64,000 nucleotides of DNA from Lytechinus pictus (GCF_037042905.1 NC_087250.1:23376001-23440000); one strand, 5' to 3'; counted from the stretch's first letter, positions 15,528 through 55,886 are shown. Translations and numbers: made by a program. Notes: generated from the sequence alone by a model not told the origin.

Positions 15528-15613
15528 TCACTTACCTGATAATGAAAGTGTAGATGAGATAGATCCAGGCAGAATGGAAGGAAAAGAAAAGAAACACAAA
15601 ATATGGATTAGAA
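15528..15613 (-). other. Candidate recursive splice site (zero-length exon) RS-3, junction 15536/15535
   Basis: Minus strand reads TTCTAAT-CCATATTTTGTGTTTCTTTTCTTTTCCTTCCAT-TCTGCCTGGATCTATCTCATCTACACTTTCATTATCAG|GTAAGTGA. Branch-like A at 15608; no other AG in 15538-15624. Confidence 0.75.
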
Positions 15614-15829
15614 TAATGTAATAACTATTATTTCCTTTTTCACATCAAACGGAAGAATAAGAGGGGGTTTTTCAGATTTTTTCTAACCTTATTCTTTCTT
15701 TCTGTATTTAGCTAGCATTGTAAAAATAAAAATTGAATACGTCTTATACAACCTGATCATAATGTTTATTTAATATATCATCACTCTCATATAACTTTGC
15801 ATCGAGATGTATCTATCTCTTCTGAGGCT

Positions 15830-16060
15830 GAATGGGTTGGTACTGTTGCTATGACAGCGCCACTACAAAGTTCATGGGTAATCGCCGCTCTAGCGTGAGG
15901 GCGTTAATCCGTGTCCGGGGCCGGCTCTGATGTCGAGCCGGGCGCGGATATCAAAACGTGATGACAGGCAGGTCTGTCCTTGGATTTTAGCGCCAACCGA
16001 GCGAGGATGATCACAGAGACAAGGAAATTTGATGACTCGATCATGTTAGAATCCTAATCA
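15830..16060. promoter_or_regulatory. CpG-rich unique island, candidate cis-regulatory module
   Basis: CpG-dense in an AT-rich background; X-box-like GTTGCTATGACAGC (15845-15858); TAATCC/TAATCG motifs. Confidence 0.35.
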
Positions 16061-16124
16061 GAACGTATAATGTAATGTAAGTAGGTCTAGTTATGGTGTG
16101 TGCCTGTCAGCAATTGCAATTTAA

Positions 16125-16517
16125 AGGTAAATTCCAGTTCTGGTAACGATCTCAAATTGACTTTTTACAGAATCTAATATAATGACCACCCAAGTGTCTG
16201 TTTGTATAAATAAAAAATATGTGCCAAAGGATTCTGGAAGAAATTGTGTAATTGCTGAGAAATAAGCAAAATAAGCGCGGATTCGGTCACTTCCGTCGGG
16301 TCTTTATTCCAGCAATTATAATACACTGTCCCACGTGTGCCTATCTGTGTTGGCGATCTTCAGTGTGATCGTATTTCAGCTTGGATTTTATGATTTCACA
16401 AAGTTCAGTTTATGTAACTGTACCAGATCTAGATCCTCGATGATATACTGACAATTAAGCCTGGTTTACAGACTTTCTCATGAAATCAGTGTTTACTGCA
16501 ACTACTGGCATTTCTCT
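16125..16517 (+). mobile_element. Kolobok-like (TTAA-target) non-autonomous element
   Basis: TTAA|AGGTAAATTCCAG start; near-identical inverted copy at 56402-56795. Confidence 0.85.
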
Positions 16518-17920
16518 TGCTTTTCAAATTGTCTTCAATTAAGAACACTTTAATATGAGACACTGCAAAGCGTTCGTTGTCAAAATTAAGATGCAATTGC
16601 CAAAATAAGTGATTGTCAAATTGCTATTACTCTTAATTAATCTATTTTGGTGGTAGTTTGAGTTTGAAGATGGCATTTTTAATTGGTGAAGGTTTTTCAA
16701 ATCAAATACAGATTGAAATCACGTCTGGAGTGTCGCAGTGCAGTAAACTAGTATAAACCATTTCTGATGTATATCTATCATGAAGTTATTTTTCTTATTA
16801 TTATATCTGTCACTTTTGAGTATCTCTTTCTATTTTATAATTTGAATTCAAAGGTGATGTTACCCCAGTGAGCATTCGCTTACATTGATTAAGATTGAAG
16901 TTATTTGAATCTGGAATGATGAATGAATGATTCAATTATCTTAAATCGCTGCCCTAAAATGGACCCTCATTAGTTGCCCAATTGTTAAGCCAAGCCAGGG
17001 AGTTGGGAGGTTGATTCATTCCAGTAAATCACTCACATGCATTATTTATCCAACGAGATGTATATTTCTTTTAACTGTAGAATTAAAGCTATCAGCTTAC
17101 CTCTGAATGCATTCCAATATAAATCTGTTTTGTTGTCCAATGATTTGGATTTTATTGGATTTTATTTCTATCTATTCGATTCTCTTCAGTCCCCACTCTC
17201 CTGACCCCTTCCCCTAAAAATAAATCCTCTCTCCTTCCCTCCTATCAAACTTTCTCACTTCATAAAACCTTTGCCATATACAGGCCTAGATATCAAGTGA
17301 AGAAATTAACTTCAATTTCACACCTTAGTGGAAGGAGATTATCCTCCAAGATTCTCTTAATCCTACCCAATTTCAAGCCTTTATGCACTGCTAATTGCAG
17401 ACACAGAGCTGATCCAGCATAAATGTTGAATTTCCCTCAAGAAATTGGAAACAAGTTATTTCTACTTTTGCTTAGACGGGAATAAAGCTATTTAAGAACA
17501 CGGAGATGAAATAGAAAATGTTAATATTCAAGATCTAAACTAGGAACAAACAACGATTACAGATATGCACGTTGTGATGCCTCAGAGGAAGGAACCTGCA
17601 TAATTGAAACCATAAGGAATATTAAGATATCAAAATATCAAAATTATAGTTGAAATTATGTTCAACTACATTGCAGATAATTATTGATACTGGTGATTTT
17701 TCTCAAATAACTAGACTTTCATTTAATACAGGGAAATGCTTATTGCCATCATCTCCAACAGAATAATTGTAAAGTAACTGGTTGATATAAATAAAGGACT
17801 GGAAAATATCCATGTACACAATAGAAGAAGCATTGCTGTTTTGAAAAGAATGTACCACAAGCATAAGACAGAATATTCTCATACATGCAATTGAAGGAAA
17901 ATGTGTCCATGGCACACTAA

Positions 17921-18587
17921 TACCCTTTTTACACAGGATTTTCTTAGCCCCGGACTATCGCTAACCCCGTACTTTCCTTAACCCCGTACTATTTTTTTTC
18001 CTTTTCACACATGCCAAATTGTTATTGCTAACCCCGGATAAGGAATGCTTGCTTTTCACACACGAAACATGACTAGTGGTAGCTCATGAATATTCACGAG
18101 CGCACTGAGGGGTCATTCGGGTCATATCCAAAATCGCGCGCGCTTTAAATACATTTGTCGATCATTCGTAGTACAAGTACTTCACTCGGAATTGTTTATC
18201 GACTATACAATAGACCTAATTACGTTATTTGCTTGATTCTCATCACCGTGTTCGCTGTCATGAATATTCATTATGCTTACCTCTGATTGGACAACAGGGC
18301 CAGCTCTGTTGCGGGGCATGAAAGGGAGCGCTTAGCCCACTTTCGTTTTACACTAGCGATCTTAACCTCGTACTATCGCTCTTAGCACCGCAATTGCTGG
18401 GATAACCCTGTTTTTTTGCAGGGCCAAATAATCCCGTACTAAAGGTGGGGTTAGACCACTTTGCAAAAATGCTGTGTAAAAAGAAAGTGGGCTAAGCTTA
18501 ACCCCGTACTATAGGTGGGGCTAAACGGCAATTTAGCCCCACCTATAGTACGGGGTTAAGGAAATTTTAGCGTGTATAAAAAGGGTA
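17921..18587 (+). mobile_element. PIF/Harbinger-like non-autonomous element
   Basis: TIRs TACCCTTTTTACAC / GTATAAAAAGGGTA; TAA TSD; many TAACCCCGTACT subrepeats. Confidence 0.9.
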
Positions 18588-18705
18588 TAAGGGTTAAAAA
18601 GCCATCCTTGGGAGTATGAACACAGTTTTCTCCACATACGTTTTGAATGAAGCGTCCTTCGACCAATCTAACACTAAATACTTGACAAGTCTTATTAGGT
18701 GAGCT

Positions 18706-19116
18706 GACCAGTCCAAATATTATCCTCCATAAAGCCGCAAAATACCAAACACCCTAGTCTAAACAAGACTGGGGAGAAGGCCGGTGTTCAAGAACATGTA
18801 AAGCCTGTTCACACTAATGGATCTCAAATTTAGACCAGTCCAAATATTATCCTCCATAAAGCATCATCTAAACAAGACTGGGGAAAGGGAAGGCAAGTGT
18901 TTAAGATCACATCAAGCCTGTTCACACTAATGGATCTCAAAGTCAGACCAATCCAAATATTATCCTCTCTAAAGCATCGTCTAAACAAGACTGGAAAGGA
19001 GGAGGCCACTGTTCAAGAACACACAAAGATTGTTTACACTGCAATGGATCCAGAATTTAGGCCAGCCCGCATATTATCCACTTTCTAAAGCCTAGTCTAA
19101 ACAATATTGGGGAGAA
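18706..19116. repeat. Minisatellite, ~114-bp unit, ~3.6 copies
   Basis: Units start GACCAGTCCAAATATTATCCTC at 18706, 18833, 18946 and about 19060. Confidence 0.9.
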
Positions 19117-19476
19117 GTCGACTATCGTCAGTTTGCCACTATTTTAACTACTATGGTAACAGGGCTCAACAGCCAATCAAAAATTAAGGTTTGTTTGGTA
19201 GTTACAATATTAATTAAAAAATCTTTGTAAAACGGATCCAAAAAGTCTCCATAATGAGTGTCCACTGCACAACTAATTCACAAGCGCAGATCCTTTCTGT
19301 AAATTTTCTTTTTATTTATTTATTTTTTTTATAATTCAACTAAACCATACTCCCCCTCTCATTAGATGGAACGAGGGAGAAAAGTTCCTACATGTGCTAA
19401 AAACATTTTTTTACTGAAGACTTAAGGTCAGGCAACATACTGAGTCCTGTTTATCATCTCAGCAGTAAGCTTTCTT

Positions 19477-19490
19477 GTTGCCATGGAAAC
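19477..19490 (+). promoter_or_regulatory. RFX X-box motif
   Basis: GTTGCCATGGAAAC matches the RFX consensus. Confidence 0.4.
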
Positions 19491-20090
19491 ATGTTGTTCC
19501 AGCTCCCTTACCACTGCTGTTGGTGGAGCTAGTCTTGTTTGGAGACAATGCATAATTTATCATCTCAAGATTTTCTTTGATCGCAAAATCATGCAAATGT
19601 TAAGTTGAATATTTAGAAAGATAAATAACTGACAGACATTTTGAGTTATTTTCCCCAGAAATATCATCAAAATAATCATTGTAAAATTTGATGCCTGAAT
19701 GTTCTCTTATTCAGAATTCTACAAATTCATGTAGTTTGAAGAAAGCAGATTCAAGACATTTTGACAATTTGCCTTGATACAAGGCTATCAATCTGGATCA
19801 GCAGGTGCAAGACTTTAATAGCGACTCCTCATTAGTGCATAATTGGAGGAGAAAAAAACTCAGATCATTCAATAATAGATATATTACGACCTTATTGCAT
19901 CTTCCATTCAGAGTGTTTGGATAGGGGATTTGTGTTCCATTTTTTATATCTTGCCATTTTCTATCTTTCTTTTGATTTTGATCAATTCATTGACTCATCC
20001 TTTTCTCTTTTTTTTGGGGGGGTGTATCATAGCTGGATAGTTGTTTCAAGAATTAAACAAATGATGATAATGTCTTAAGTTTGTTTTCTT

Positions 20091-20523
20091 TTTGCAAAGT
20101 GGGCTAACCCCACCTTTAGTACAGGATTATTTGGCCCTGCAAAAAAGCAGGGTTATCCCAGCAATTGCGGTGCTAAGAGCAATAGTACGGGGTTAAGATC
20201 GCTAGTGTAAAACGAAAGTGGGCTAAGCTTAACCCCGTACTATAGGTGGGGCTAAATGGCAATTTGGCCCCACCTATAGTACGGGGTTAAGGAAATTGTA
20301 GCGTGTGTAAAAAGGTACGAGTGAAGTACTTGTACTACGAATGATCGACAAAAACCACTAGTCCGGGGTTAGCGAGTTTCGTGTGTGAAAAGCAAGCATT
20401 CCTTATCCGGGGTTAGCAATAACAATTTGGCATGTGTAAAAAGGAAAAAAAATAGTACGGGGTTAAGGATAGTACGGGGTTAGCGATAGTCCGGGGCTAA
20501 GAAAATCCTGTGTAAAAAGGGTA
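20091..20523. mobile_element. Rearranged copy of the 17921-18587 element
   Basis: Four segments of the element in mixed orientation; both termini point rightwards (ending 20317 and 20523). Confidence 0.85.
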
Positions 20524-21666
20524 AAGGAGAACATTAGCAACAATCAGTTTTCCCCTCTTTTTTCATTTTGGGACTATATTCTTCATAGACAAAAGAGTAG
20601 GTTTTTTTTTCGCAATTTCATTTGCCCATCCTAATCCACCCATTAGCATGCCCCCCTACACCTCGTTTTTGCAAATTACAGGTGCTGTTACATGTTTAAT
20701 CAAGATCCAACATTTAGCAAGCAGTCATGGGTCATACATCACCGTCCCTTCTAAATTAAGAAAGGGGGGGGATAAAGCTACTATTGCATTTTCGCATGTT
20801 AACCCCTCTTCTACGACAATGACTAATGCCCTGTCTCACCAACCTTCATCTCACACATGAAAGCTTGATCAAGTGTAGCCCTAGTTACATCATGATAAAA
20901 CATTGGAAATAAGGCAATGGCATGTATCAATCGGGAGTCTGTTTGAGCTGGTGAAGCTCCACAAGAATCAGAATTCTCAGAAAAGGGCTAGACAGTGCCA
21001 ATCACACACGGCAACAGATAATCAAATGTGATCAATTAAGTATTCATAATATTGATATTAATGCCATTAAATGAAAGTCCCCTCATTGTCATATCAAACA
21101 ATGCAAAGAATTCCCCACCGACCGATGATTGATTTTTCCATTCATGCGCAACATATCCAATTTCACCTTTTCTTCCTTGATCAAAATAGTTAATTAGTGA
21201 TTGACCAAATATTGATTTTAAAATCTAATGCATGAAATGAAAAGCTTGGATTGCTGTCACTGAATTCCACATGTCGAAGGTTGATGACCTCAATCTATTG
21301 TAGTTTTCATTTGATGAGGTCATGGGACCAAAGATTCTGGCCATGTACATTTCAATTGTAGGGTTTTAGTTACAAAAGTGTTCTGGGGAAATATCAGGGG
21401 GTCTTATTGAATAGAAATAAGAAGTCGTTTGGCTGAAATAAGTAGATTGCAAACTGCAAAGTAATAACTTGCAAGAAAGAAAAGAGGGAGGAGGGGGCAT
21501 ATTCCAAAGTCCGAAACAATCAAGAAAATTATTGACCTTCTTGAGAAAAAAATAACTGAGTGATAGATTTTGATAAAATATTTATAGAATATCATATTTC
21601 AATCTTTTCCTTTCTCTCTATTTCTCCCTTTTTCCCATCTGTAGCCAGTGATTCAAACATTTCAAT

Positions 21667-22142
21667 AGGTGGTTTCAGACCGCCTCGAAGTTCGTCAGTT
21701 CCAGGTATTCTCTGATCGGGAAATTTACCCCGATCAGAAAATACCAGGTATTTTGGTAATGTGAAAGCAAACTACGCATAATTTCCCCGAAAGAAAATAC
21801 CCGCTAAATAGTAGGTACTTGGCGAAATTACGAGAACTTTCGCGGGGATTTTTCCAAGGTCGCAGGTATTTTGGCAATGTGAAAGCAATTTACGGGAACT
21901 TTTAGCCCAGCGTGTCGTTGGGCGCGGGCGCCGTGTGTGGCTGCTGGGCTAGTGGTTTTGAATCTCGCGCCTTGCCTGCTTATTAGACCATACTGCGCAT
22001 GCTCCTAACGTCAGGAATTTATCCCGAAGGGTATGTTTCGGGGCGGTCTGAATGCAGGAATAATTAATGGGTATTTTTTAGCCTAAAAATGTTCTCGTAA
22101 TTTAACGGGGATTCTTGTGATCGAGGCGGTTTGAAACCACCT
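21667..22142 (+). mobile_element. ~476-bp PIF/Harbinger-like MITE, copy 1 of 3
   Basis: TIRs AGGTGGTTTCAGACCGCCTCGA / TCGAGGCGGTTTGAAACCACCT; 3-bp TSD AAT. Confidence 0.92.
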
Positions 22143-22821
22143 AATGTATTGCATACTTTTTGTTTGTTTGTTTATTTACTGTCATACAGAATGGGTGTGA
22201 ACTGAACAAGCCATCAGCTGATTAGATTAGATAAATCAGCATCATTTTATTGTATTTGAACAAGACCATGGAGGTTTTCAAAATCAACACCTGCATCTGA
22301 AAAAAGGATTTCTAGGGAAAGACAGTCATAGAAACTAGTATTTACAGAAATTACTGATGGTCAAAGAATGTCTACAGTTGAGACAGATTATATGATTTTC
22401 TTTGTTTGTTCCACGGAGATATAATCGGCTGTAGGGCAATCAAGCCATATAAATTCCAGTGGCATTTTGACTGGACACAAATAAAAATGCTTGAGATATC
22501 TCCAAAATTGGATGACCAAATAAAATGACAAAGGGACACGAATGTTGCAAGGACAAAAATATACAATTAAAGTCTAGTTTTTGAAAAATTCTTAGAAAAA
22601 ATAATCAGCATATTTGTACATAGAATCAATCAAATAGATAAATGAACATGACCTTGATTATGTTGAATAACACTGATTTAGACAAAATTTAGTTATGAAT
22701 ATTTACTAGTATATTAAAAATCTTTCAGATGACTTCCAAAGAAATTGGATCCATGACATAATGAACTTAGGATGTGTTGAATTAGATTTGAGCAGGCATC
22801 ATTGAAAAAGAATGTAACTTA

Positions 22822-23629
22822 GGCTGCGTTTATGCGACCTCAAGCCAGAATCATGATTTGAATCATGATTTGAATCATGATTCAAAACACAAACATGAAT
22901 CACGATATCACAGAATCAGCGTTTAGACGACCTTCATTCCAAAGCTGTTTCTCCTCAGATTCGGGCCAATCCAGTGCGCATCACTAGTGCGCAGTTTGAC
23001 AGAGGAAGTTTTTCGCACGTGTTTCGGCTCTCGAAAAATATTTTGCTTCCAGAATTCAACCTAAGTTTACTTCTATCATATAGGGTCCATATGCTTCTAT
23101 TCATCTTGTTAGTTAATCCAAAATGGTGTTCGGAAGTGAATTTCAGCGTAGATCCAATTTAATATTGACACTCTATACTCAACAACAACTGAGATCATTG
23201 TCTGTCCAGTTAATTCATTTACTAGAACTTGAAGTTGAAGACATGACCAAAAAATGAAAAGTAGTGGACGATGCGAAGACCAACACAGAATTTGAACATG
23301 ACAAGAAATGCATGCAATGTAATCATGTACATACAATGAGCACATAGAGAGCCTTGAGCTTGGCAAGAGTCAAACCGAAAGCCGTAGCCCGACACAGTGG
23401 GGTCATATAATCATGATTCAAATCACGATATCGTTTATTCGAACATTTTCGTACGTGATTCTGCAGAAACGTCTTTCCAAACGCCCCTTTTTTCGTGTTT
23501 CATGTTTGTGATTCTAATCATGATTATATTCAATTTCGACTAAACGCAATCGTGATTCTGCAGAATCATGATTTGAATCATGATTCGAATCATGATTATA
23601 GGGTAAAAAAGTGGCGGATAAACGCACCC
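22822..23629. mobile_element. PIF/Harbinger-like non-autonomous element
   Basis: TIRs GGCTGCGTTTAT / ATAAACGCACCC; TTA TSD; tandem palindromic AATCATGATT repeats near both ends. Confidence 0.88.
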
Positions 23630-24204
23630 TTATTCAGTGCTTTCGTATTTGCGATTCCAAACTCGAAAGATGTTTATTACTTTGATTTTTCAACAGATGA
23701 CAAATTTCATGAATGCAGTTTGACTTCAACAACATGTTTCTAGGGCAAAAAAGTATTAAATTATTGGAGCCATTTTTAACATAGACTATAAAATGTGAAA
23801 GGACAATACATTGAGAATCAAGAACTTTATAAAAAAGCAATGTCTGTTAACAATGAATTTAAAACCTTTGTATACACAATCAACTTGATTATCCCCAAAT
23901 ATCACAGGTTATTGGGGCGATGGAAGGAGGAGGCGGAGCTGTTAATCTGTAAACAACATTAAATTGGCAATAGAGGTATAAAATGAGTCCCTTTGTCAAC
24001 AGAAAGGTAGCAGTAATGTAGTAGGGATGTGTCAAGTCATAAAAACGTGTTTGGATGAGATAATAACAGGTGAGATGGGTTTCAGAGAAGAAAAAAAACA
24101 CCCACAAAAATACAGTTATATGGATAAAATAGGAAAGAATAGAGATATGTAGAAGACTAAATTAGCTAATAGGGAGTTAAGTATTAAAAATGAATCACAT
24201 TACA

Positions 24205-25132
24205 ATTATAAGCCAAGTTTAGCCCTGAAAAGGTTGATGTGAACAAATGAATGAAAATAATAATTGGCATTTATATATTCCGCCATCTATCTAAAAATAT
24301 TATATTCCGAGGCACACGAGAGAAAAGAAAGAATAAGAGGGTTTGGACAACCATAGCACTAAAATTTCATTAAAATTAGATGTAAAGTAAAGCATGGACC
24401 TGGGGCCCGTCTTACAAAGATTTGCGATTGATCCGATCAATCCCAACTATGGAAAGCCAGCAAAGTCAACGTATAAAATGCATGTTTGTTCAAAAAAATT
24501 CTAGATATGAATGTATATCCATAAATTCATTGATTTCTTGACAATTTGGTGTGTTCTCCTTTTTTACAAAGGACATTTTGCAAATTTCCTGTGGAATAAA
24601 ATTATGATACTGATGGATTTCCATAGAGTTACGATTGATTGGATCAATGGTAACTCTTTGTAAGACGGGGCCCTGGTCCATGAGTATAGTTTTCACATTC
24701 TAGAGTTTTGCCCCCAAAAAGTTATATGCACAATGAGGGTGATATATATGCAAATGGAAGAAAACCATGTTCATTCTTTTTTTTTTTTTTTTTTTTATTA
24801 CATGAAATGAAAATTCATGTTTTTCACTTTTGTTGGTTCAAGGATAAAGCAAGCTCTTGAATGTATTGTAAGTTAAAATAATGGTGATTCCACATGTTCA
24901 CTGTACATTGAAATATTCTATATTTCAAAATGAATTAAATATAGTGAGTTATGTCTACCAAATTGCTGTCCTTATTATTTACATGTTCCCTGTATTATGC
25001 CTATCACTGTTTTGCAAAATTAAGTAGAAATTTAGGATGTCATTACTTACTTATTTTACATCCACTTTTTTAAATCAAATTAAGCGAAAGTAATTTGTTT
25101 AAACCTTTTTTTTTTAAAGCATTGATCCTTTG
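24205..25132 (+). mobile_element. Old Kolobok-like element interrupted by nested insertions
   Basis: Subterminal inverted motifs AAAATTAGATGTAAAGTAA / TTATTTTACATCCACTTTT; interrupted at about 24256-24345 and 24393-24682. Confidence 0.5.
24403..24672 (+). mobile_element. GGGCCCGTCTTACAAAGA MITE
   Basis: TIRs GGGCCCGTCTTACAAAGA / TCTTTGTAAGACGGGGCC; CTG TSD; family copies at 58469-59000 and 58542-58810. Confidence 0.9.
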
Positions 25133-25583
25133 ATGGAATTTTAAGTGCCATGCTCTTTGATTTAATTCCCACCAAATGAATTAGGTATTCTTGAGTTTAG
25201 GGGAAAATCCCATCCAGAGACTGTACCCCAAGACAACTGTCTCCCATATCAGAGCAGGCATTGAACTTGTAAGTTATGTGTCATATCATTCTAGGTATTG
25301 GAGCAATGCACCATCAAAGGTTATGATAGCCCCCATGAACCGGTATCAGGGTGTATATATTGCACCTCTTCTTGCCCCACCCTCTTGAAAACTGAAACAA
25401 GATCTGACAAAAATGTTTTCAAATTACAGCTTGTTCCATGAGCTTGTTCCTACAGGACCAATAGTAAATTTGTCATATTCATCAAATTTTCACTTAAAAA
25501 ATGAACAAAAACACTATTTTTTGTAGTAATTTTCTAAAGCCAAATAATTCAAATTCCTCAGGGGTGTTATAACAACATAGACT

Positions 25584-25657
25584 GTAGTAGTACAAGTAGT
25601 AGTAGTAGTAGTAGTAGTAGCAGTAGTAGTCATCATAGTAGTGGTAGTAGTAGAAAC

Positions 25658-25728
<71 letters not shown>

Positions 25729-25771
25729 AAGTAGTAGTAGTAGTTGTGGTAGTAGTAGTATAGCAGTAGTC

Positions 25772-25855
<84 letters not shown>

Positions 25856-25921
25856 ACAGCAGCAGTAGTAGTAGTAGAAGTAGTAGTAGTAGTAGTATTA
25901 GTAGTGGTAGTTGTAGTTGTA
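25584..25921. repeat. (TAG)n microsatellite
   Basis: About 340 bp of GTA repeats with few interruptions, followed by an AAT/AAC-rich tract. Confidence 0.97.
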
Positions 25922-43640: not shown

Positions 43641-44159
43641 CAGACAGAGGGCAGGTGATGCTAAAATGGCCGTCTAAATAATCACAGCGATGCATCCTGG
43701 GTGTTTTTAACCAACTCCAATCAAGCTCAAATAATTTGATGTTCCCGTTCTTTCCGCCTGATCTACGAATGGAATATGAGACGATACTGCAGTCCCATGC
43801 CTTTACTTTTGCGTTGGACAAACAAATGTTATAACAGGCAGCCTTCTGATACAACATGTTAGAATGCAAAAATGACTGAATCAAAGACAGTGTTATGTCA
43901 CATTGAAGACAAATTTTTAAAAACATCCTTTTCGTTATAATAATATTTATAACCAACTCTAGAATGTAAGTATACATTTCCTGTAAGGCTGTCACTCAAG
44001 CGTTCTAACACTGAAAAATTGACATGTGACATTTCATAAATCGAATAGTAGTACCAAATACAGACACAGATAAACTTGTATTCTTTTTGTCAAACGATTG
44101 TCAAGACACAGCTCTAGCAAATCAATTATTTCATATTATATATCAAGTTTTTAACAGTC

Positions 44160-45060: not shown

Positions 45061-45717
45061 ACCTTCACCCTATATTATCATTTTCCTTCCCAGAATCCCT
45101 TCCCCTGTATATAACACCTCCCCATCAACCCATACATGATATAATATCCCAGAAGGTGTTCCATCTCTAACTAAACAACCTCTCGGGGCCAGAGGTGCGC
45201 TATTTCTCCAAACATGAACATCTCTCTAACAACTGTCACTCGTCCCGGGCTACCCAAGATTTTTCTTGGGGGTATTTGAAGACGTCGCACCTTGATAATT
45301 GATTTCTCTTTTATTTTGTTCATCATTTTGATCTCGCGAGTCTTACAGCACTGCCAGCATAGTAATCAAACAAATTGATTCCATGGATGCGACGAAAAGA
45401 AAGTCAGAATCCTACAACATTTAGTGTCAGTATGATGTCTTTAGAGAGATCAGTTTAAAAAAGTATAAGTCTTCACCCTGATATCTGAGCTCTGATATCA
45501 TTGTCATGTTATAGAGTATTGATTGTAATGCATTCATTAATATTTTTATGCTGTAGATTTATAATTTTCATGGCTGATGTAACTAGGTATAAATGTTAAT
45601 ACTGCTATTCTGAGCAATCATTGTGGCATTGAGTGGTATCACCATTAATGGTGGTGGTGGTCATAACTATCACAATTACCAGTCCATAATCATCCTTAAT
45701 CAACATCGTTGTTTAAC

Positions 45718-45955
45718 TTCTTCTTCTTCTTCATCACCATCATCATCACCACCATCCTCATCACTACCACCCCCATCATCATCATCATCACCACCATCCT
45801 CATCATTACCACCACCATCATCATCATCATCATCACCATCATTGTTTTTGTCAACATCATCGCCATCATCTTCACCACCACTGCCAATATCACCACCAAC
45901 ATCATCATCATAATCAACATCATCATCATCACCATCACCACCACCAACAACAACA
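45718..45955. repeat. (CAT/CAC)n microsatellite
   Basis: Degenerate trinucleotide repeats. Confidence 0.95.
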
Positions 45956-46403
45956 ATATTATCTTGCTCTTTCACGTTCATCAACAAGAATAGGTAGATA
46001 ACAAACATCATACAAATCCCCCCAAAAAACATTTTCATTTTATATCATTTCAACAAAACCCAGTGAAATTGTGTATCTCATGATTTCCACCCAAAAAGCT
46101 CTATCTACACTTATAACACCACCTACAAAAGAAAAACATCTGACTCCAACAATCCCATAATGCCCCAGCTCTCCCCTAGGCCCAATCCACTGAAGAAGTC
46201 CGATCCCCGAAACCGCCTCGAACAAATTAGCGGGTAACGTTTAGCACGGCTCATCTTACAGAAGGCCAAGACTTGAAGGAGTCCGCAGGGGATAGGTCCT
46301 AAGATGGGACACAGTTAGAAACGTTTAACTGACAAAGATGCTGCGCTGTTATATGCACTATGCTGACAAGAAACAGGACATGTGTAATCTGTAATATGGG
46401 GTG

Positions 46404-46920
46404 TAATATACAAATAGCGAATAGGCATGAGTGCGATGGTGCGAGATTTCGCATGAGGTGAAAGCAAGATGCTCTATTCAACGAGGCGTTAGCCGAGTTG
46501 AATAGAGTGTTTCTTTCTTTCACCGAATGCGAAATCTCGCACCATTGCACGAATAAGAATATTCGCTATTTGTGTTGTACAACGCCTCGGAGTTTAGCGA
46601 ATTTATGAAAAAACCAAGAGTTTTTCCTGCAGTAATCTATGGAAAGGGAGCAAAAATATGGAAAGCGAAAAGCAAAATCCCACAAGCGAACACCTCGGGC
46701 AGCATTGCGCATTTAGCCAGCAGGCTATACGCGTATTGCACCTGCATTTTTACTGAGCGCAATGAATTGAATCGTATTGTGACGTCACCTCCTAAAGCCG
46801 TGCAACGGTACATTTTGGACGGTACATTTTGGATGGTACGTCTTTTGTGCAACGGTACGAATGTTTGACATTCAGCCTCCCATTTGCTCGCGTACAACAA
46901 GCTAAGTAGGCGTTGTACAA
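46404..46920. mobile_element. Probable non-autonomous DNA-transposon-derived repeat
   Basis: CpG-rich block with internal inverted repeats (AATAGCGAATA / TATTCGCTATT, GTGCGAGATTTCGCA / TGCGAAATCTCGCAC, GTACAACGCCT / AGGCGTTGTAC). Confidence 0.55.
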
Positions 46921-47129
46921 TATGCAATGTACGTTGAAATCTACAATGTGGGGTGTAATCTACCATCCATGGTATTATGACATCACAATGACATATCACC
47001 TGGAAGCCCTCATACAGAATATGAAGCATCTGACTCCAGTCATACAATAATAACAAAGCGCTACATGGAACGATGTCTCTAAGAGCTTTACAGACATATT
47101 AATTATTAATTTACTACCCCGGTCATCAG

Positions 47130-47375
47130 ATCCTTGCATGCCCACATACAATGTATGCACTTTCTCCACCTCCTGGGGAGCATTCCAATCAGAGTTCAAA
47201 AACTCAATTGCTAGGCATGCTACATAGGATTTCGCATCCTACCGGGTACTCATTTAACACCTGGGTGGAGAGTGACAAAGTGTGGACTGATGCCTTGCCA
47301 AAGGACGCTCGGCCAAAGTGGGATTAGAACACATGACCCTTTGATTACAAGGTAGAAGCGGTACACCAAAACGCT
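47130..47375 (-). mobile_element. tRNA-derived SINE, family 2
   Basis: GGGTACTCATTTAACACCTGGGTGGAGAGTG is the reverse complement of the family core. Confidence 0.75.
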
Positions 47376-48315
47376 AATAACAATAATAATATACAACATA
47401 TAGCACTTAATACAAATGCTTCTAAACGCTGCATACTATTAATGAAGATGACACTTCATAACCTGCATAACATTATTTAAAACTTCAATTTAAATTTACT
47501 GTACAATAAATGTTGATTATTAGTTTTGCATAAAAAGCCTCTATGGGAATCACAGAATTCGGTAGTTAACAGGTTAAGCTATCAAACCTCTGAAAATCAC
47601 CAGAAATAAGTAAGTACCCTTCAAATTAATGATTATTGCTTAACACCCAGAAATGGGGCAAATGTAACGTAATATCATTCCATATCATACTCATAGCAAC
47701 TCGTCATAACAACCACGCATGAATGCGTACAGACAGACTCTAATACCCACACATATTCATACAATTCACAGAGTCGCATCTTTCTGGTCTCCATTACAAG
47801 CAAGTAACCTACATGATCTTAAATTGGCGCTGAAATCGGATTAAGCGCCGGTTAAGGCGAGACAGACGACACGCTCCCCACACCTGTCAGACATACAACC
47901 GAGAGCTTATATTAACCTACATTCGTTTGGAAAAGAGAAGATTGAGAAATTGTCCGTTATTTCACCTTTATTGGAGAGAGATTATGTACTATTAACCCTA
48001 ATACACTTGCATGGCTTTATTTAGGATTATACTCTTTTAATTTGTTATTTATCACTTTCTCAATTACATTTAACAACTTTTTCAGGTTATTCAGGACCTT
48101 TTTTATTTTAATTTTGCAGAACAATATAATTAGTCATTGTTTGGTATCTGGAATCAGTGCTTTTTATTGGGTTTTTACTAATTTTTGTAGGCCTTTAAAT
48201 GCTTCATAATGTGTATGTGGGACAACAGAACTGTTTTTTTATGATTATAATTATATCCAATCTGGTGAGGGGGAATTTGTAAAGCACATTCGCTTGGAAC
48301 AGAGGACGTAAAAAT

Positions 48316-48848
48316 GGTTCCATGACATTTGTTCCGGTGACAATTGCTCCACTGTAAATTCCATACCCTAACAGAATGACCAGCTATTCTTTACGATCTT
48401 CCACATCTACCACTCTTGTGATCCCGCGTAGCAGGACCAAGCATTATGGAGATCGGGCTTTTAGCTATGTGGCGCCAGTTATGTGGAATAGACTGCCAAG
48501 TACTATCAGGAAGATGAACACTCTTAAGACATTCCAATCGAGTGTCAAATATTACCTATTTTTACAACCATATTAGAGAAGGCCATGTCTTTTCCTCACA
48601 TGAATGTTATGTTTGATGATTTGAATTGTGATTATTTCCAATGCTTTTGTTTATTGAATATGTAGCGCCTTAAGTAATGACCCATTAGAAAGTGCGCATT
48701 AGAAATACTTATTATTAGCTTTTACACAGGATTTAACACTATTACCTATCCTAAACCTAACCCTAAACTTAACATAAACTCCCATTGCAATCCTAATCCT
48801 AACCCTATATCTTAGACGAAATAAAGCCTGGAGCAATTGTCGCCAGAA
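48316..48848. mobile_element. GTGACATTTGCTC-family MITE split by a LINE fragment
   Basis: Left half 48316-48384 and right half about 48717-48848 match the 9072-9228 copy. Confidence 0.7.
48385..48716 (+). mobile_element. 5'-truncated LINE (L2/CR1-group) 3' end
   Basis: Peptide YSLRS...YGDRAFSYVAPVMWNRLP..IR..TFQSSVKYYLF matches the typical ORF2 C-terminal motif GxRAFSxxAPxLWNxLP; followed by a 3' UTR and TATTATT tail. Confidence 0.85.
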
Positions 48849-48981
48849 CATCTAATTCTCACAATTGACTGACCAATTGAACTAGAGATTAATCATACCT
48901 CATTATCAAAAGCATTATTAATTTCCTTTATGAATGCACAACTGATAATGGATGCCTTTTGATTCCCTGAGGAGAATATAT

Positions 48982-49456
48982 AGGTGGTTTCAAACCGCCT
49001 CGATCACAAGAATCCCCGGTAAATTACGAGAACATTTTTAGGCTAAAATATACCTATTAATTATTCCTGCATTCAGACCGCCCCCAAACATACACTTCGG
49101 GATAAATTCCTGAAGTTAGGAGCATGCGCAGTATGGTCTAATAAGCAGGCAAGGCGCGAGATTCAAAACTACTAGCCCAGCAGCCACCCACGGCGCCGCA
49201 CCCAACGACACGCTGGGCTAAAAGTTCCTGTAATTTGCTTTCACATCGCCAAAATACCTGCGACCTTGTCAAAATCCCCGCGAAAGTTCTCGTAATTTCG
49301 CCAAGTACCTACTATTTAGCGGGTATTTTCTTTCGGGGAAATTACGCGTAGTTTGCTTTCACATTACCAAAATACCTGGTATTTTCTGATCGGGGTAAAT
49401 TTCCCGATCAGAGAATACCTGGAACTGACGAACTTCGAAGCGGTCTGAAACCACCT
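48982..49456 (-). mobile_element. ~476-bp PIF/Harbinger-like MITE, copy 2 of 3
   Basis: Reverse complement of 21667-22142; flanked by a 34-35-bp direct duplication. Confidence 0.92.
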
Positions 49457-50259
49457 AATGGATGCCTTTGATTCCCTGAGGAGAAGATATGAGAATCATT
49501 ACCAAGCTACATTAGGCATTCAAGAGATGAGCCCTGGTGCATCTCAACTCTCAAGTGTGATAGTATGGTGCAAAGAGGTTTAAAGGGGAGCAGCGAAATC
49601 ATTTGATTCAATTCAAATCACCTATAAGCTTAATGCTCTATGAGATATTTGCAGTAGATCTGATCTCAAGTATATTTGTATATCAAAAGGCTTATTTATA
49701 GTGCTCGCATTGGTTTGATGCTATTCCATTTCTATATTACCAAGTCATATATTTATCAATTTCTACTTTTTATACTATAAAATTATTATTATGACCAAGT
49801 TGTTCATTTCTCTTTACTATGTTAATTTCAATTATGTGACAATACAACACATATTGATTATAATTACTGGTTAGGGTACACAAAATCATTTACTACTGGT
49901 ATGAATTATGAATTGAAAGTAGACTAAAACAAACTTGATACTTGAAGAATTTACATGCCAACATTTTATATTCTGAAAATTGCCCTCACAGGATGAAGCA
50001 TTAGCGCCAATGAAGAGAGTTCACACTTCACATTTGCATTGTATTGCTACACAATCAAAACATAGTATACTAGTAAATGTGAACGAGCTCAGTCACATAT
50101 CAATGAGTGATATACAACATCACATAATGTGGCAATTAAGAATATGAATCATTACAAATGATGAATAAACTATGAGTGCCCCTCTAAAGCTCATCAACGC
50201 ATCCATTCCCTATCTTTACACCAATGCCTTGCAATCTCAACACCAATGCCTCGTTTAGT

Positions 50260-50480
50260 GTGATGAGCGGAGCTATTGCTCATAGCACGTATTGCTGCCT
50301 GATTAATTTTAATTGCGAGTAAACCCTCGCGGACCACGTTAGCTGTTTGGCGCACGAACGAGACAAGTGATGCGACGGCTTGATGATAGAGCTCCCCCCT
50401 ACGCAATCAGAATACGGTGGATGAACCGATGGGGGTAATCGCCTAATCGCCCGTTCTGATTTTGCAGGTGGGGGTGGTTA
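50260..50480. promoter_or_regulatory. CpG-rich unique island, candidate cis-regulatory module
   Basis: CpG-dense, non-repetitive within the window; TAAT/ATTA and TAATCG motifs. Confidence 0.3.
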
Positions 50481-51295
50481 ATTCTTCGGGGAGGACAGTG
50501 GATTTGGATGCAGGAGTAATGAATGAATTACTGCTGCCACTTAAATTTTAGGCTTTGCATTTGATGAGTGAGATTTTATTCCAGATGAGGTCCCCCATTT
50601 TGGTTCTGCTGAAATACTTCTAGTCCCAACATCACAATTCCTGATTGGTTTGAAGACGAGACATTTTCCTCATTTGTAATGTACCTTTTCTTGTACTTCT
50701 ATAAGTTCTCTTTACCTTTACGTTTTGCTCTCTACTAAGCGCCTTGAGCATTTAATCGAAATGGAAAAAATGCTATATAATCCTATGTATTATTATTCAA
50801 TTGTGATATATTCAGGGCTTAATTTTTTATCAATTACATATGATAATATAGATTCTAATGATTCATTTTAATAACAATTTTTGATAATGAATTATAATTC
50901 TCAAAATAAATTTGAATCATTCAAATCTATAACAAAATTTAATAAAGATTTCAAAATAATAAATTCTAATTCATCATAATGATATATTATAATAACAAAT
51001 TCTTATGATGAATTCTATTAAAATAGAAACAGCGGAAATACATTCTAGTTATAAATAAATTCTATAAATTAATTCACAAGCCAGTATGTTACATCTCCCA
51101 ATTAATGAGCATTATGGATTAATCTATTGCTTATCTTGACCCCCTTTTCAAGGGAAATATTGGTTGTAGGGAAGCGTAATGAAATATCTGTGTCAAATCA
51201 ATACTTTCTCACATCTAATATTCATTCATGAAATATTTAATAGTATACTCAAACAAGGAGGAAAATTTTGTTGACTACCCTCCACGTTTAATTGG

Positions 51296-51530
51296 TATTA
51301 TAAAATAGGTGTATTATTTCAAGCATCGCGATTGGCCAATAAGCGTCACATGACATCTAACTTTTTTGTGCATTGCATGGCAGTGCAAAAGGTGCGCAAC
51401 AAAAACTGACATTGCACGCTCAAGCAGACCAGGGCGGTAGAAGTCCCGGGAGAAGTCCAACAAAACTGTACTGTAACTTTTTAAGAATTTGCTTCTGGGT
51501 TGCTATTTTATAAAACAAATAATGCACTTG
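51296..51530. mobile_element. Probable degraded interspersed repeat
   Basis: Inverted ends TATAAAATAG / CTATTTTATA; internal GATTGGCCAAT palindrome. Confidence 0.35.
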
Positions 51531-52514
51531 CTCTGTCGTGCGTAAAAGTAAATGCAGAGAAAGCTCGGTTTCTTCAGATGGTGCACACTGGGCACTCGGC
51601 GCCAGCGGCTCGTGCACAGTGCGGCACCTATCTCATGAAACCTCACGATCTCTTGAACATATCCAAATTCATATGTCAAAGACTCTCTAAATGTCACAAC
51701 ACCTACATGTATGTGTGTGATCTCAAATTAGCGCCATGATCATATCGACTTATCGAACCACCTTCGGTCAATACCGTCACATCGTAAGCATCAAGTATTT
51801 GATTTTTTTTCAGTCTAGAATGGCTGACATAGAGTAGATACTGTCCACAAGAAGCAGAGCTGACTTAAGCCATGATAACACCTCTCTAATCAGAAAAAAA
51901 GAGTAAATGTCTTCTGGCCTCGAAATAATTGACAATTTATTGGTTCATTCACACATGTCTGACCCAGATAAATTTCTCCACTTTAAAAAAAAATTGCCTG
52001 AAGTTCCTGACTATGCAACAAGATTTTTGCTCTTTTCAGATTTTATACAAGGATTACGCATTTTTTTTTGTTTCACTGCGTGCCATGTGCATTCTTGCAT
52101 TTTTGCTTTCCCACTGAAAATGTCCCAAGACAAGGACAAATTCCTGCAATATTTCGAAAAATTACTTAAGTTGATTACATTATCTTATAGGGATAGTATC
52201 TTTCACACCATCCAAATACTTGGAATACACTGTTCAGGGAAGAATACCTTATCAGATACTTTTCCTAATTGGGATCAGTGTGAGAGCAGCTGTAGATGCT
52301 GTAATCTTGATAGTGAAGATGATTTAAACTCTCTCCAGTACAAACAGTAGATGTTACTCTAGATGGCGTCTCGCGAGGACGAGCACGAAGATTAAACAGA
52401 GAATGCGATCAGGAGACAAGGTATAGGATCAATAAATTATTGCAGGTCACCGTTAGAAGGAAATGAGCATCTCATATATTGCTAAAAGGTTGGGGAGTGT
52501 CAGAGGAGTGGTCC

Positions 52515-53225
52515 ATTGCCACTTGGTCTAATGGTGCTTGTCCAGTACCACATGGTTTAAAAGGGGGATTTTGTCTATTAGTACCTGGTCTAAAATATCA
52601 CTTGGTCTAAGAGCCACTTGGTCAAGTAGCACTACAGTACTTGGACCTGGTCTGATATACACTAGTCTATAGCACTTAATCCTGTATCACTTGGTCTTGT
52701 AGCCACTTGGCTTATTCGCACTTGGTCAAATAGCACTACAGTACTTGGACCTGGTCTGATATACACTAGTCTATATCACTTAATCCTGTATCACTTGGTC
52801 TAATAACACAGTCTGATATGATTTGGTCTAATGGCACATGGATTAATTAGATAATCACACATGATGTAATAGGTTATAGCATTGTCTTGAAGCACTTGTT
52901 CTCACTTGATCTAAACATGGACCTACTGCAGGTCCATGGTCTAAACTCTAATTGCAGCTGGTCTTATACCAGTTGGTCCTATAGGACTTGGTCACATGGT
53001 ACTTAGTCTATATCACTTGGTACTACTTGGTCTAATACTAATAGGGATAATACTAATTGGTCTAATACTACATGTACTTGATCTAATGCTAATTAGTCTC
53101 ATACTACTTGGTCTAATACTAATTGGTCTCATACTACTTGGTCTAATACTAATTGATCTAATACTACTTCATCTAATACTACTTGGTCTATAAATACTAC
53201 TTGTTATAATACTTCTTGGTTTTAA
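52515..53225. repeat. Degenerate ~15-bp minisatellite (CTTGGTCTAATACTA)
   Basis: Dozens of TTGGTCTA units; an ~83-bp direct repeat at 52615 and 52719. Confidence 0.9.
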
Positions 53226-53600
53226 ATAATCTTGGGTATACATGAATGAAGGTACAGACTTTATCAACAAGATACAGATAAATTAATTCATTCAGAATTT
53301 CCAGAAATTGCATTAGGAGTAGGCCAAATTTTTTTTTGAATTCAAGACAGAGATTCCCCTCCCTCTTCTTAGTAAGTCAGCAAAGATTTTTTAAAAGCAT
53401 CCTCAAGACAAATTCGCATTTATCATTCGTCTCAATCTAATAACAGAGCCAGAGGCAACACCTTGGTAGTGCCACAGAGTATTTTCCTCCAATCATTTGT
53501 TCACGGAAATAGACCGGTTCTTATTTGCTTGCTAATTTGATTTGATTGTGGATAAAAGAAGTGAAAGCTTCTTGGTGAGGACCGAGCGTTCTTCATCAAC

Positions 53601-53730
53601 TCGGAGCATTTCATGAAACTAATGATTGGTGATTGTCACTGGTAGCTGTTATAAGCTACTGAAATCCTTGCATCTGATTGGCTGAGAGCAGTGACTTTCA
53701 TTGACAAGATGATTTGTGAAACACTCCCCC
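53601..53730 (-). mobile_element. CCAAT-carrying short MITE
   Basis: Reverse-complement homolog of 1619-1760. Confidence 0.75.
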
Positions 53731-54469
53731 TTGGATGAGAGCAATGAGAACACATTTTCGTTATTATTTTTTTCTTCAATTAGTCTATTTCATCCTCTTT
53801 GCCACCCCCCCCCCCTTACCCCCCCCCACACACACATACACACCCTTACACTAATGCATGCATCCTGTTAGAGATGAAAATCATTGTTACAATCATAATG
53901 CAAATGCATGAATGAAAGGAGAAGTCAATGACATACGAGCACTAATGAAGAAAATAATATTAGAGAAATGTATCAATGAAGTTTTCTGATATAGGTTTCA
54001 TGGTACAGCGTGGACCTTTCTTGGACCTAAAATGGACAATCCAATGCTAAAAGCAAGATTTGGAGATTTTATTGATTTTTGTCAATTAAAAACTTGTGAT
54101 ATTTCACATATTAAATCTCATTGATATTTTTAATGGGTCCTCACGATATTTTTTCATATATACAATAAATAATGATTATTTATTGAATGCATAAGTAAGA
54201 TCTTTTTCAATTTTCCAGAGAAAACAGCACATTAACATAAGTTAATATTGGCTTGGGCTTTATTTCCCTTTAAATGAATAGTTTGCATCACATTGTCCAG
54301 CACTGCCAATATTGGAATTCACTACAATTCTCAGATTATGTTAAGTGATGCTACTTAGTTTAAACACATAATTACAACTGCCAAATTTCATCAATTTGGA
54401 CAGATCTATCTTATAATCACCTCATCAAGAGTGCAAACTCTGAAATTATCCTCACCGAATTACTCATCG

Positions 54470-54800
54470 ACCCTAATTAATACACCTTCACTAGTGCCAT
54501 ATAACCAACACACGCAGGTTATACGAGTGGCTTTAACCCACAGACAGTAATAGCCTATATTCCCCTGGGGAGCGTAATTAATGGTAATTAACAGCAATTA
54601 ACCCACATTGATATCAACGACCAATTTACGCATGCGGTAGCAGCATTACTAGTGCTGTATCAAACTTCGGGGTGACTCCCCTATACCCCCGTGTGTTTTA
54701 TGTATCATTGTATTAGCAGCTTTCGGCTAATGTGTATCATAATGCGCGCTGGCGGGCTAATTAAGACATAATACAGCGTGATTAGATAGAAGGGAGGTAT
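54470..54800. promoter_or_regulatory. Homeodomain-site-rich candidate enhancer
   Basis: TAATTA at about 54474, 54575, 54585 and 54758, plus CAATTA, in a CpG-richer unique segment. Confidence 0.35.
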
Positions 54801-54894
54801 AAAACGAACTAACAGGTTTTAGAGTTGTCGGTGTGATGACATAGCTAATGGTTGAATGTTCCGCCAATAATTTGTAGAGAGTGTGAATGAAGCT

Positions 54895-55024
54895 TGGAGG
54901 CATTACATGAAACAAAAAGTCAATGATTCTTCACAGAGTATTTGTTATAAGCTACTGAAAGCCTTGCATCTGATTGGCTCAGAGCTAAATAGTCAGTGAA
55001 GATTTGTTTCATGAAATGCCCCCC
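54895..55024 (-). mobile_element. CCAAT-carrying short MITE
   Basis: Homolog of 53601-53730. Confidence 0.75.
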
Positions 55025-55192
55025 ACGACCAAAAACCTGCTCAATGCAATATAGTTGAATATTCTTGATTAAACTGTAAGTGTTAAAAGATAGTTTGTGA
55101 ATTTCAAAATATTGCAAAAGAACAGGACTTTTGGAAATCTGCTCTTTCTGTATAAAAGGAATTCTTGAAATTTATAGATGCATTTACTCAAA

Positions 55193-55670
55193 AGGTGGTT
55201 TCAGAACGCCTCGAAGTTCGCCAGTTCCAGGTATTCTCTGATCGGGAAATTTACCCCGATCAGAAAATACCAGGTATTTTGGCGGTGTGAAAGCAAACTA
55301 CGCGTAATATCCCCGAAAGAAAATACCCGATAAATAGTAGGTACTTGGCGAAATTACGAGAACTTTCGCGGGGATTTTTCCAAGGTCGTGGGTATTTTGG
55401 CGGTCTGAAAGCAAATTACGGGAACTTTTAGCCCAGCGTGTCGTTGGGTGCGGCGCCGTGCATGGGTTGCTGCTGGGCTAGTGATTTTGAATTTCGCGCC
55501 TTGCTGCTTATCAGACCATACTGCGCATGCTCGTAACTTCAGGAACTTATCCCGAAGGGTATGTTTCAGGGCGGTGTGAATGCAGGAATAATTAATGGGT
55601 ATTTTTCAGCCTAAAAAAGTTCTTGTAATTTAACGGGGATTCTTGTGATCGAGGCGGTTTGAAACCACCT
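55193..55670 (+). mobile_element. ~476-bp PIF/Harbinger-like MITE, copy 3 of 3
   Basis: Same TIRs as 21667-22142; 3-bp TSD AAA. Confidence 0.92.
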
Positions 55671-55797
55671 AAAGAGTGATCAGCGATCCTACTCGGAGAG
55701 GGGGGGGGAGGGTCATTTCAACATTAATCTAACTAGTTGTAACTGAACTTTATGGGGAGGGGGAGGGCTCAAGACGGGGAAAAAAGTTTTAGAACAA

Positions 55798-55886
55798 TCA
55801 CTTACCTAATGAATGCAAACAGATTGAGTAGAAGCGGCAGTACAGCAATATGAAAAGAAGAGAGAAAAAATGAAATTGAGTTAGAA
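55798..55886 (-). other. Candidate recursive splice site (zero-length exon) RS-1, junction 55806/55805
   Basis: Minus strand reads TTCTAAC-TCAATTTCATTTTTTCTCTCTTCTTTTCAT-ATTGCTGTACTGCCGCTTCTACTCAATCTGTTTGCATTCATTAG|GTAAGTGA. Branch-like A at 55881; no other AG in 55808-55926. Confidence 0.75.

Follow-up and report, generated by a model that had tools for sequence, protein, structure and literature searches.

Eight probable recursive splice sites with a displaced pyrimidine tract in the first ephrin intron of the sea urchin Lytechinus pictus

The first intron of the ephrin gene of the sea urchin Lytechinus pictus, which spans about 184.6 kb on the minus strand, contains eight YAG/GTAAGT sites, in which an acceptor is fused to a donor, and it is very probable that they serve as genuine recursive splice sites, with an architecture that forms a new variant. 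The stretch analyzed here, 64,000 nucleotides (nt) of genomic DNA (GCF_037042905.1 NC_087250.1:23376001-23440000; G000:C6:23376001-23440000 in our coordinates), is called the window, and positions are counted from its first letter. The window (1..64000, minus strand) lies entirely in the interior of ephrin intron 1, with both intron ends outside it (window-relative 138086 down to -46541), and 100 kb of flanking sequence was added on each side, giving 264 kb in total. The eight sites divide the intron into nine segments of 24.6, 11.1, 20.2, 26.4, 27.3, 13.0, 24.6, 17.9, and 19.6 kb. The reading we favor, and consider probable, is that the intron is removed at these sites in nine consecutive steps of 11-27 kb, and that the sites follow a displaced-platform design.

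The window has four YAGGTAAGT matches, all of them on the minus strand (15530, 28505, 31846, and 55800), against a mean of 0.86 after shuffling of the window, and none of 100 shuffles attains four. Across ephrin intron 1, AGGTAAGT is found 10 times in sense and not once in antisense orientation. Eight of the 10 sense occurrences follow an AG-free zone of at least 76 nt, a length reached by 1.43% of the 10,813 intronic AGs (binomial 8e-14). Five further minus-strand AGGTAAGT sites lie beyond the window, at window-relative positions 113514, 102392, 82183, -9041, and -26934, with AG-free zones of 76-150 nt, whereas the two AGGTAAGT sites on the plus strand of the 264 kb have AG-free zones of 0 and 20 nt. 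At the fourth YAGGTAAGT of the window (site C, 31853) the AG-free zone is 11 nt, and at the fifth AGGTAAGT, a GAG-type site at 10290, it is 16 nt; neither has a tract, and both look like chance occurrences and were used as internal controls. For the eight sites, which amount to 4.3 per 100 kb of intron, a chance origin is excluded by the 10:0 strand bias together with the AG-free zone statistics. A repeat family was rejected as their source as well, the 221-nt flanks of sites B and D being single-copy in the 811.7-Mb L. pictus assembly, and the alignment of the sites showing likeness at the level of motifs only.

The three sites inside the window (A, B, and D) are composed of the following elements.

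15530..15538, minus strand: site A, CAG/GTAAGT, an acceptor fused to a donor, with the A of its AG at 15537
15538..15575, minus strand: spacer of site A, AG-free, moderately pyrimidine-rich, opening with the AT of CAT, with one TGC
15538-15624, minus strand: complete AG-free zone of site A, 87 nt
15576..15594, minus strand: core pyrimidine tract of site A, 19 nt without a purine, ending in the C of CAT, 38 nt before the AG
15607..15611, minus strand: branch-like CTAAT of site A (motif prediction), with the branch A 72 nt upstream of the acceptor G
28505..28513, minus strand: site B, TAG/GTAAGT (A of the AG at 28512)
28514..28561, minus strand: spacer of site B, AG-free, opening with the AT of CATG, with three TGC
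28513-28616, minus strand: complete AG-free zone of site B, 104 nt
28562..28584, minus strand: pyrimidine tract of site B, made up of 18 uninterrupted pyrimidines, TTTTCTCTCTCTTCTTTT (28567-28584), followed by A and TTCC
28590..28594, minus strand: branch-like TTAAT of site B (motif prediction), with the branch A 80 nt upstream of the acceptor G
55800..55808, minus strand: site D, TAG/GTAAGT (A of the AG at 55807)
55809..55851, minus strand: spacer of site D, AG-free, opening with the AT of CATA, with three TGC
55808-55926, minus strand: complete AG-free zone of site D, 119 nt
55852..55870, minus strand: core pyrimidine tract of site D, 19 nt TTTTTTCTCTCTTCTTTTC, ending 44 nt before the AG
55880..55884, minus strand: branch-like CTAAC of site D (motif prediction), with the branch A 75 nt upstream of the acceptor G

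All eight ephrin sites share this plan. Each has a pure pyrimidine run rich in UCUC, the tracts being 18-30 nt long and ending 32-61 nt before the AG, and each has a CAT no more than 4 nt from the tract end, which is extended to CATG in five. The spacers between tract and acceptor contain no AG and are 64-75% pyrimidine. The branch-like YTRAY motif lies 75, 72, 72, 75, 80, and 72 nt upstream in six of the sites, and 108 and 90 nt upstream in the remaining two. A preliminary description of sites A, B, and D had given tract ends 38-49 nt before the AG, branch-like A residues at 72, 80, and 75 nt, AG-free zones of 87-119 nt, and one, three, and three TGC motifs. Recomputation gave tract ends at 38, 54, and 44 nt, where the value for site B is the end of the 15-nt all-pyrimidine window and becomes 49 if the following ‘ttcc’ is included; the CTAAT, TTAAT, and CTAAC distances, the AG-free zones, and the TGC counts (taken in the last 45 nt before the AG) were all reproduced. 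The strongest specific motif, the CAT(G) at the tract end, is absent from that description. An RNA fold bringing the branch and the AG together was tried and rejected, the mean minimum free energy z score of the eight sites being -0.2 for -95..+12 and -0.4 for -48..+12.

The displaced layout recurs across the genome and is not peculiar to ephrin. We counted four patterns, using each reversed pattern as control and correcting the fold enrichment for the 2.86-fold lower frequency of the 9-mer itself.

YAGGTAAGT (behind H-N120): 6644 matches, 19013 reversed, the 9-mer being 2.86-fold rarer than its reverse
Y10-R-N30-58-YAGGTAAGT: 458 matches, 838 reversed, about 1.6-fold corrected
Y8-CAT-N28-60-YAGGTAAGT: 106 matches, 63 reversed, about 4.8-fold corrected
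Y8-N-YAGGTAAGT (classical, fly-like adjacent tract): 70 matches, 141 reversed, about 1.4-fold corrected

The roughly 2.9-fold rarity of YAGGTAAGT relative to its reverse fits selection against stray perfect donors. Among the 100 matches listed of the 106 to the CAT-type pattern, 33 are AG-free by eye, 4 of them being ephrin sites, where about 8 would be expected as reckoned from an AG frequency of about 5.5%. Several of the other AG-free matches are grouped by twos or threes on one strand, at distances of 14-137 kb, on C3, C4, C8, C14, and C17. Twenty non-ephrin sites (301 nt each) have a median AG-free zone of 99.5 nt with a minimum of 65, a YTRAY at 55-110 nt in 14 cases, and a pyrimidine peak of 0.91 in -51..-60, this last position being given by construction through the pattern. 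Two recursive-type sites on the minus strand of C14 (L048 and L049, G000:C14:6806074-6806139 and 6832968-6833034) lie 27 kb apart and have near-identical spacers, CCATG(G)TCCATCTTGATGTCTG...CAATCAG; at least some sites arose by duplication within an intron.

The layout also differs from that of the ordinary acceptors of L. pictus, the upstream signals being set back by some 45-75 nt more. We mapped 23 such acceptors exactly, threading proteins through the DNA until the joined translation equaled the protein: 16 belong to clathrin heavy chain (L. pictus protein P0018; 16 of 27 exon matches on C2, from the six loci L029-L034), 3 to a zinc-finger gene, and 4 to ephrin (exons 2-5), the last being placed by alignment to the proteins of relatives. 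Checked for the same arrangement, the ordinary acceptors have their tract adjoining the AG, with a pyrimidine fraction of 0.80 at -1..-20 that is down to background by -40, whereas the eight recursive sites reach 0.90 at -51..-60 and show 0.64 at -1..-10. The median AG-free zone is 93.5 nt for the eight sites and 40 nt for the ordinary acceptors (p = 3e-4). When the 8 ephrin and 20 genome-wide sites are taken together, the best YTRAY lies at a median distance of 74 nt, compared to 28 nt in ordinary acceptors, and CTAAY is found at 60-95 nt in 10 of the 28, where our own arithmetic from a background rate of 0.0015 per nt gives an expectation of about 1.5. UCUC motifs in -90..-46 number 2.0 per site in the eight and 3.45 in the 20, against 0.22 in ordinary acceptors (p = 3e-6). 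Finally, A occupies each of the positions -2 to -4 in about 50% of the 28 sites and in 9-26% of the ordinary acceptors; with so much A ahead of the YAG, the last bases look more like those that close an exon than those that close an intron.

Sequencing reads were compared on positions 25950-38650 (12.7 kb), a stretch chosen to be clear of the long simple repeats at 25584-25921 and 38671-38936, which holds site B and control site C and leaves sites A and D outside. The run X1 consists of contigs, its kind being unrecorded, and is one of four runs of the same study, each with about 35% of the words of 24000-33999. The depth of X1 contigs is 18.4 and 15.4 over 25950-28514 and zero directly above 28514, the drop from about 15 to 0 falling within 4 nt of site B. 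The depth of 0.76 in the next bin is wholly due to its first 21 nt. Further above site B there is no coverage until about 34 kb, and from there it runs at 2-17 towards the next upstream site. Control site C shows no feature in X1.

The contig that ends at the cliff is in gene sense and aligned to 28514 with one differing letter, followed by 16 extra letters without a counterpart in the stretch. Exon 1 of ephrin ends in CTAA, whereas the genome before site B reads CTAG, and a junction of exon 1 with site B would therefore align to 28514 with one mismatch. We take 31-letter words to be Logan's word size, in agreement with the 31-letter index. Since sites B and D have the same first ten intron letters, GTAAGTGATT, a contig specific to site B could reach 31 - 11 = 20 letters into exon 1, that is 16 + 4, if the junctions at B and D both exist. 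The X1 profile has the sawtooth shape of recursive splicing and is not one that a DNA run would give; with the contig-end letters unread and the kind of run unrecorded, this is a strong hint, not proof.

Two further observations on the sequencing runs lie apart from site B. The three ribo-depleted raw-read RNA runs X18-X20 each pile 190-400 reads on about 48 nt at 35405-35453, with the first mate almost always on the minus strand and with long loose ends on both sides that are concordant between the runs. Rfam finds nothing there, and the stretch is a short one shared with an abundant RNA encoded elsewhere. In DNA runs labeled as belonging to a second organism, 5-11% of the 31-letter words sampled from 24000-33999 are present, probably representing conserved islands in a related species.

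The mechanism that we propose for the favored reading would work as follows. Each site would consist of a CTAAY or TTAAT branch signal about 72-80 nt upstream, a UCUC-rich tract, CAU(G), an AG-free spacer, and a YAG fused to GUAAGU. SF1 and U2AF65, and then U2, would assemble on the distal branch signal and tract, while U1 would simultaneously bind the perfect donor, 40-55 nt from the U2 platform. Very short exons are poorly defined owing to steric hindrance, and about 40-55 nt is where exon definition starts working; at this distance between the two platforms, the spacer could act as a disarmed pseudo-exon that allows cross-talk resembling exon definition. The second catalytic step would then take the first AG encountered, which would be the AG abutting GUAAGU because no AG stands between branch and donor. 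Exon 1 (...CUAA) would thus be joined straight to GUAAGU, with zero nucleotides kept and a donor regenerated, so that the next segment could be removed. The tract with its CAUG may be seen as a disarmed acceptor, corresponding to the CAG/G acceptor consensus with the G replaced, about 40-55 nt upstream; CAUG would be the stable choice because CAAG recreates an AG and CACG contains a CpG. We infer the branch points, the simultaneous binding of U1 and U2, and the pseudo-exon definition from this layout.

The displaced design would stand in for the downstream cryptic recursive splicing (RS) exon of flies and vertebrates. In the +10..+200 regions of the eight sites, a crude consensus score detects five donor-like motifs of score 5 or more in 1528 nt, compared to a background of 0.43 per 100 nt, and none of score 6 or more.

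Several points weigh against the favored reading. The RNA-like evidence consists of the coverage and the contig end of a single run whose kind is unrecorded. No run recorded as RNA was listed for the stretch, and X18-X20 have near-zero depth on unique sequence of 25950-38650, which neither supports nor contradicts recursion. The branch points are motif predictions, and the CAU that closes the tract likewise fits yUnAy, its A being an alternative branch candidate. The downstream donor score is a consensus rather than a trained model, and a weak donor may escape it. The 20 genome-wide sites were picked by pattern and by-eye AG-freeness, leaving further AG-free length, branch motif, and UCUC content as their independent features. 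The site comparison covers one species, L. pictus.

One alternative, unlikely as we consider it, is ordinary recursion of the fly and vertebrate style, in which exon definition runs through a weak cryptic downstream donor and the displaced tract is a lineage habit without mechanistic meaning. As far as the accessible text of Joseph et al. 2021 (PMC8605326) goes, intronic recursion in Drosophila requires a downstream cryptic exon and the mechanism is called unified across metazoans, and weak GT sites are present downstream of the urchin sites as well. However, the donor-like motifs there are no commoner than in the intron at large and stay below a score of 6, the displacement is uniform in all eight ephrin sites, the 20 sites picked by pattern have the same profile, and the classical adjacent-tract form is barely enriched genome-wide.

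A broader proposal, which we hold to be quite doubtful, is that echinoderms, and perhaps other non-insect invertebrates, have zero-length recursive exons that are read by the neural microexon machinery. A UCUC...CAUG/UGC enhancer, placed between the displaced tract and the AG, would recruit a factor of the Srrm234 type or a similar one, intron removal would be regulated and tissue dependent, and the acceptor design of microexons and that of recursive sites would have a common evolutionary origin, with each site being a short exon whose own AG was disarmed to AU.

The narrower form of this idea, which the preliminary description had put forward as a possibility, treats the sites as zero-length microexons whose use depends on the Srrm234 eMIC regulator acting at UGC motifs in the spacer, making recursion tissue specific; we regard it as improbable. 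Torres-Mendez et al. 2022 (PMC8797185) describe eMIC-dependent exons with an extensive AG exclusion zone, a UGC close to the acceptor, a UCUC-rich tract of greater length, and a strong CUAAY branch, and a second source (10.1101/2024.09.17.613571) describes stronger tract and branch signals at a greater distance from the AG, which leave room for a UCU_CUC[N1-50]_UGC enhancer. Three of these published cis features are present at the urchin sites, namely, the long AG exclusion zone, the distal and stronger branch and tract, and UCUC followed by UGC within 50 nt, the last being found by eye in five of the eight ephrin sites. TGC counts in the last 45 nt are 1.5 per site in the eight and 1.1 in the 20, compared to 0.57 in ordinary acceptors (p = 0.008). 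Relative to the number of G, TGC stands at 0.23 compared to 0.12.

Against this stand the 13 spacer TGC motifs observed when dinucleotide shuffles give 12.07 (P = 0.40), and neither TGC nor YGCY, YCAY, GCATG, CATG, or TGT is significantly enriched in the spacers over such shuffles. TGC is missing from the last 45 nt of one of the eight ephrin sites and 6 of the 20 others (7 of 28), it lies mostly just past the tract (-50 to -30) and not beside the AG, and the more constant motif is CAT(G) and not the published enhancer. The evidence gathered here concerns cis motifs and not the regulator, and a six-frame search with the Pfam SRRM_C domain (PF15230) is uninformative, giving no match in this genome or in any control genome. 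Of the microexon-like architecture described earlier, the AG-free zone, the distal branch and tract, and the UCUC content thus hold, whereas the TGC component is weak, being about twofold over ordinary acceptors and indistinguishable from the shuffles. The ‘0-nt microexon’ is partly supported as an analogy in acceptor architecture, and not as a statement on regulation; Srrm234 control of urchin recursive sites would be a guess.

We also find it improbable that the branch is the A of the tract-end CAU or another A of the spacer, 20-55 nt from the AG, with the upstream tract acting as a platform for PTB, ELAV, or a like factor. TTCAT and CCATG match the loose yUnAy, CAT is present in all eight sites, and the spacer is pyrimidine-rich enough, at 64-75%, that it could act as the tract. 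However, it is the strong consensus CTAAY at 60-95 nt that is enriched, the AG-free zone always reaches upstream past the tract and covers the branch-like motif, and a branch downstream of the main tract would depart from the known order of signals. The suggestion that the sites are not acceptors at all, being U1 sites that shield a long intron from premature cleavage and polyadenylation or mere chance, accords with a perfect, sense-only, and regularly spaced donor motif but is most improbable, as a U1-only role needs no AG-free zone, long tract, or upstream branch motif, chance is excluded by the intron statistics, and X1 coverage stops at the AG of site B.

The ephrin gene itself was delimited by protein alignment, and downstream of the window, two minus-strand open reading frames (ORFs) match Pfam Ephrin, with E values of 3.8e-23 and 7.6e-5.

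Window-relative 138247-138087, minus strand: ephrin exon 1, by sea urchin ephrin protein alignment, with the 3' end ...AACTCTAA followed by GTAAGT
Beginning at window-relative -46542, minus strand: ephrin exon 2, by protein alignment, preceded by ...tttcttccatcacAG
At most 3 kb beyond exon 2, minus strand: ephrin exons 3-5, by sea urchin ephrin proteins

The stop-to-stop ORFs of the window contain nothing convincing, and a Pfam search of 10 of them gave one subthreshold match. The sole Rfam match in the window is tRNA-like (8732-8795, plus strand; 32.9 bits against a gathering score of 29) and could represent a repeat derived from a tRNA instead of a gene. Within the ephrin intron, at 22818-23637, sits a young, high-copy interspersed repeat; about 810 bp long, it has at least 41 copies across many contigs at 93-100% identity. 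The intron also holds the long trinucleotide and hexanucleotide microsatellites (GTA)113 at 25584-25921, (TGATGA)44 at 38671-38936, and (TCA)68 at 45731-45943. Upstream of ephrin, on the same strand and outside the window (loci L027-L028), we find a four-exon C2H2 zinc-finger gene (P0002, 1182 amino acids; window-relative 155383-147676) and a 1049-amino-acid ORF (window-relative 160159-157013). A by-eye reading of the latter suggests a PHD finger, an endonuclease, and a reverse transcriptase, and hence a retroelement-like protein. A long ORF on the minus strand, located 87 kb upstream of the window end, shows 100% identity with the NCBI entry ‘zinc finger protein 814-like [Lytechinus pictus]’.

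The detailed picture of recursive splicing comes, to our knowledge, from flies and vertebrates only; there, a hidden downstream exon gets round the difficulty that an exon of zero length has no room for both splice-site complexes. The urchin sites suggest a second solution, in which the branch and tract platform is moved about 45 nt upstream, the interval is cleared of AGs, and splicing takes the first AG, the one fused to the donor. If true, this would account for the few sea urchin sites found by adjacent-tract consensus matrices and would provide a simple predictive rule for sites of this kind in the genomes of other invertebrates. It would furthermore offer a physical reason for the likeness of microexons and zero-length exons, and a change of CAT to CAG would make the spacer a real exon of 40-55 nt.

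Among known systems, the Drosophila ratchet points (Ubx, kuz, and Bx) are similar in that, as far as the accessible parts of the fly literature go, they are fused YAG/GTAAGT sites in very long introns, sense-only and several per intron, at which no nucleotide is kept and the donor is regenerated at each step. The preliminary description had set the urchin layout apart from this classical form, and the difference is borne out within the same accessible sources: fly recursive branch points are given at -36 to -21 (Duff et al., 10.1101/006163) with a prominent tract adjoining the AG, whereas the urchin tract ends 32-61 nt upstream, is closed by CAT(G), and follows branch-like motifs at a median of 74 nt. 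The cryptic RS exon of flies likewise contrasts with the urchin sites, where the crude score detected no downstream donor signal.

In Strongylocentrotus introns longer than 50 kb, ratchet-type motifs are 8.2-fold enriched in sense orientation, with 0.54 compared to 0.066 per 100 kb, in the accessible text of Shepard et al. 2009 (PMC2773006), and this excess makes recursion in sea urchins expected. That study scored the fused (y)nncag/gtaagt, with no displaced tract described in the parts accessible to us, and the density in the ephrin intron (4.3 per 100 kb) is eight times its figure. A literature search whose coverage left out most subscription journals returned no paper in which recursive sites are described with a displaced tract or with a design like that of microexons. 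By eye, none of the eight ephrin sites has the Y8-N-YAG form, so that adjacent-tract matrices probably undercount such sites.

Vertebrate recursive splicing reportedly proceeds via RS exons, as described by Sibley et al. in 2015. The urchin sites share with this system, as presented in the accessible text of Blazquez et al. (PMC6224609), the stepwise removal of long introns, the occurrence in cell-adhesion and signaling genes, and the regenerated donor. The vertebrate sites are defined there with a real, includable downstream exon, whereas no such exon is evident at the urchin sites.

The eMIC microexons (SRRM3/4, Srrm234) resemble the urchin sites in their long AG-free zone (76-150 nt in the eight sites and a median of 99.5 nt in the 20, compared to 40 nt in ordinary acceptors), in the distal branch motif and UCUC-rich tract, as far as motifs go, and in some UGC and a strong donor, and in both cases the exon is too short for U2AF and U1 to sit side by side. 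The microexons differ in that an exon of 3-27 nt enters neural mRNA, whereas at the urchin sites AG and GT are adjacent, the exon length is zero, and nothing would enter the mRNA; UGC enrichment is also weak at the urchin sites, with CAT(G) being the constant motif. The resemblance is real at the level of architecture and is best explained by a physical constraint that both kinds of exon share.

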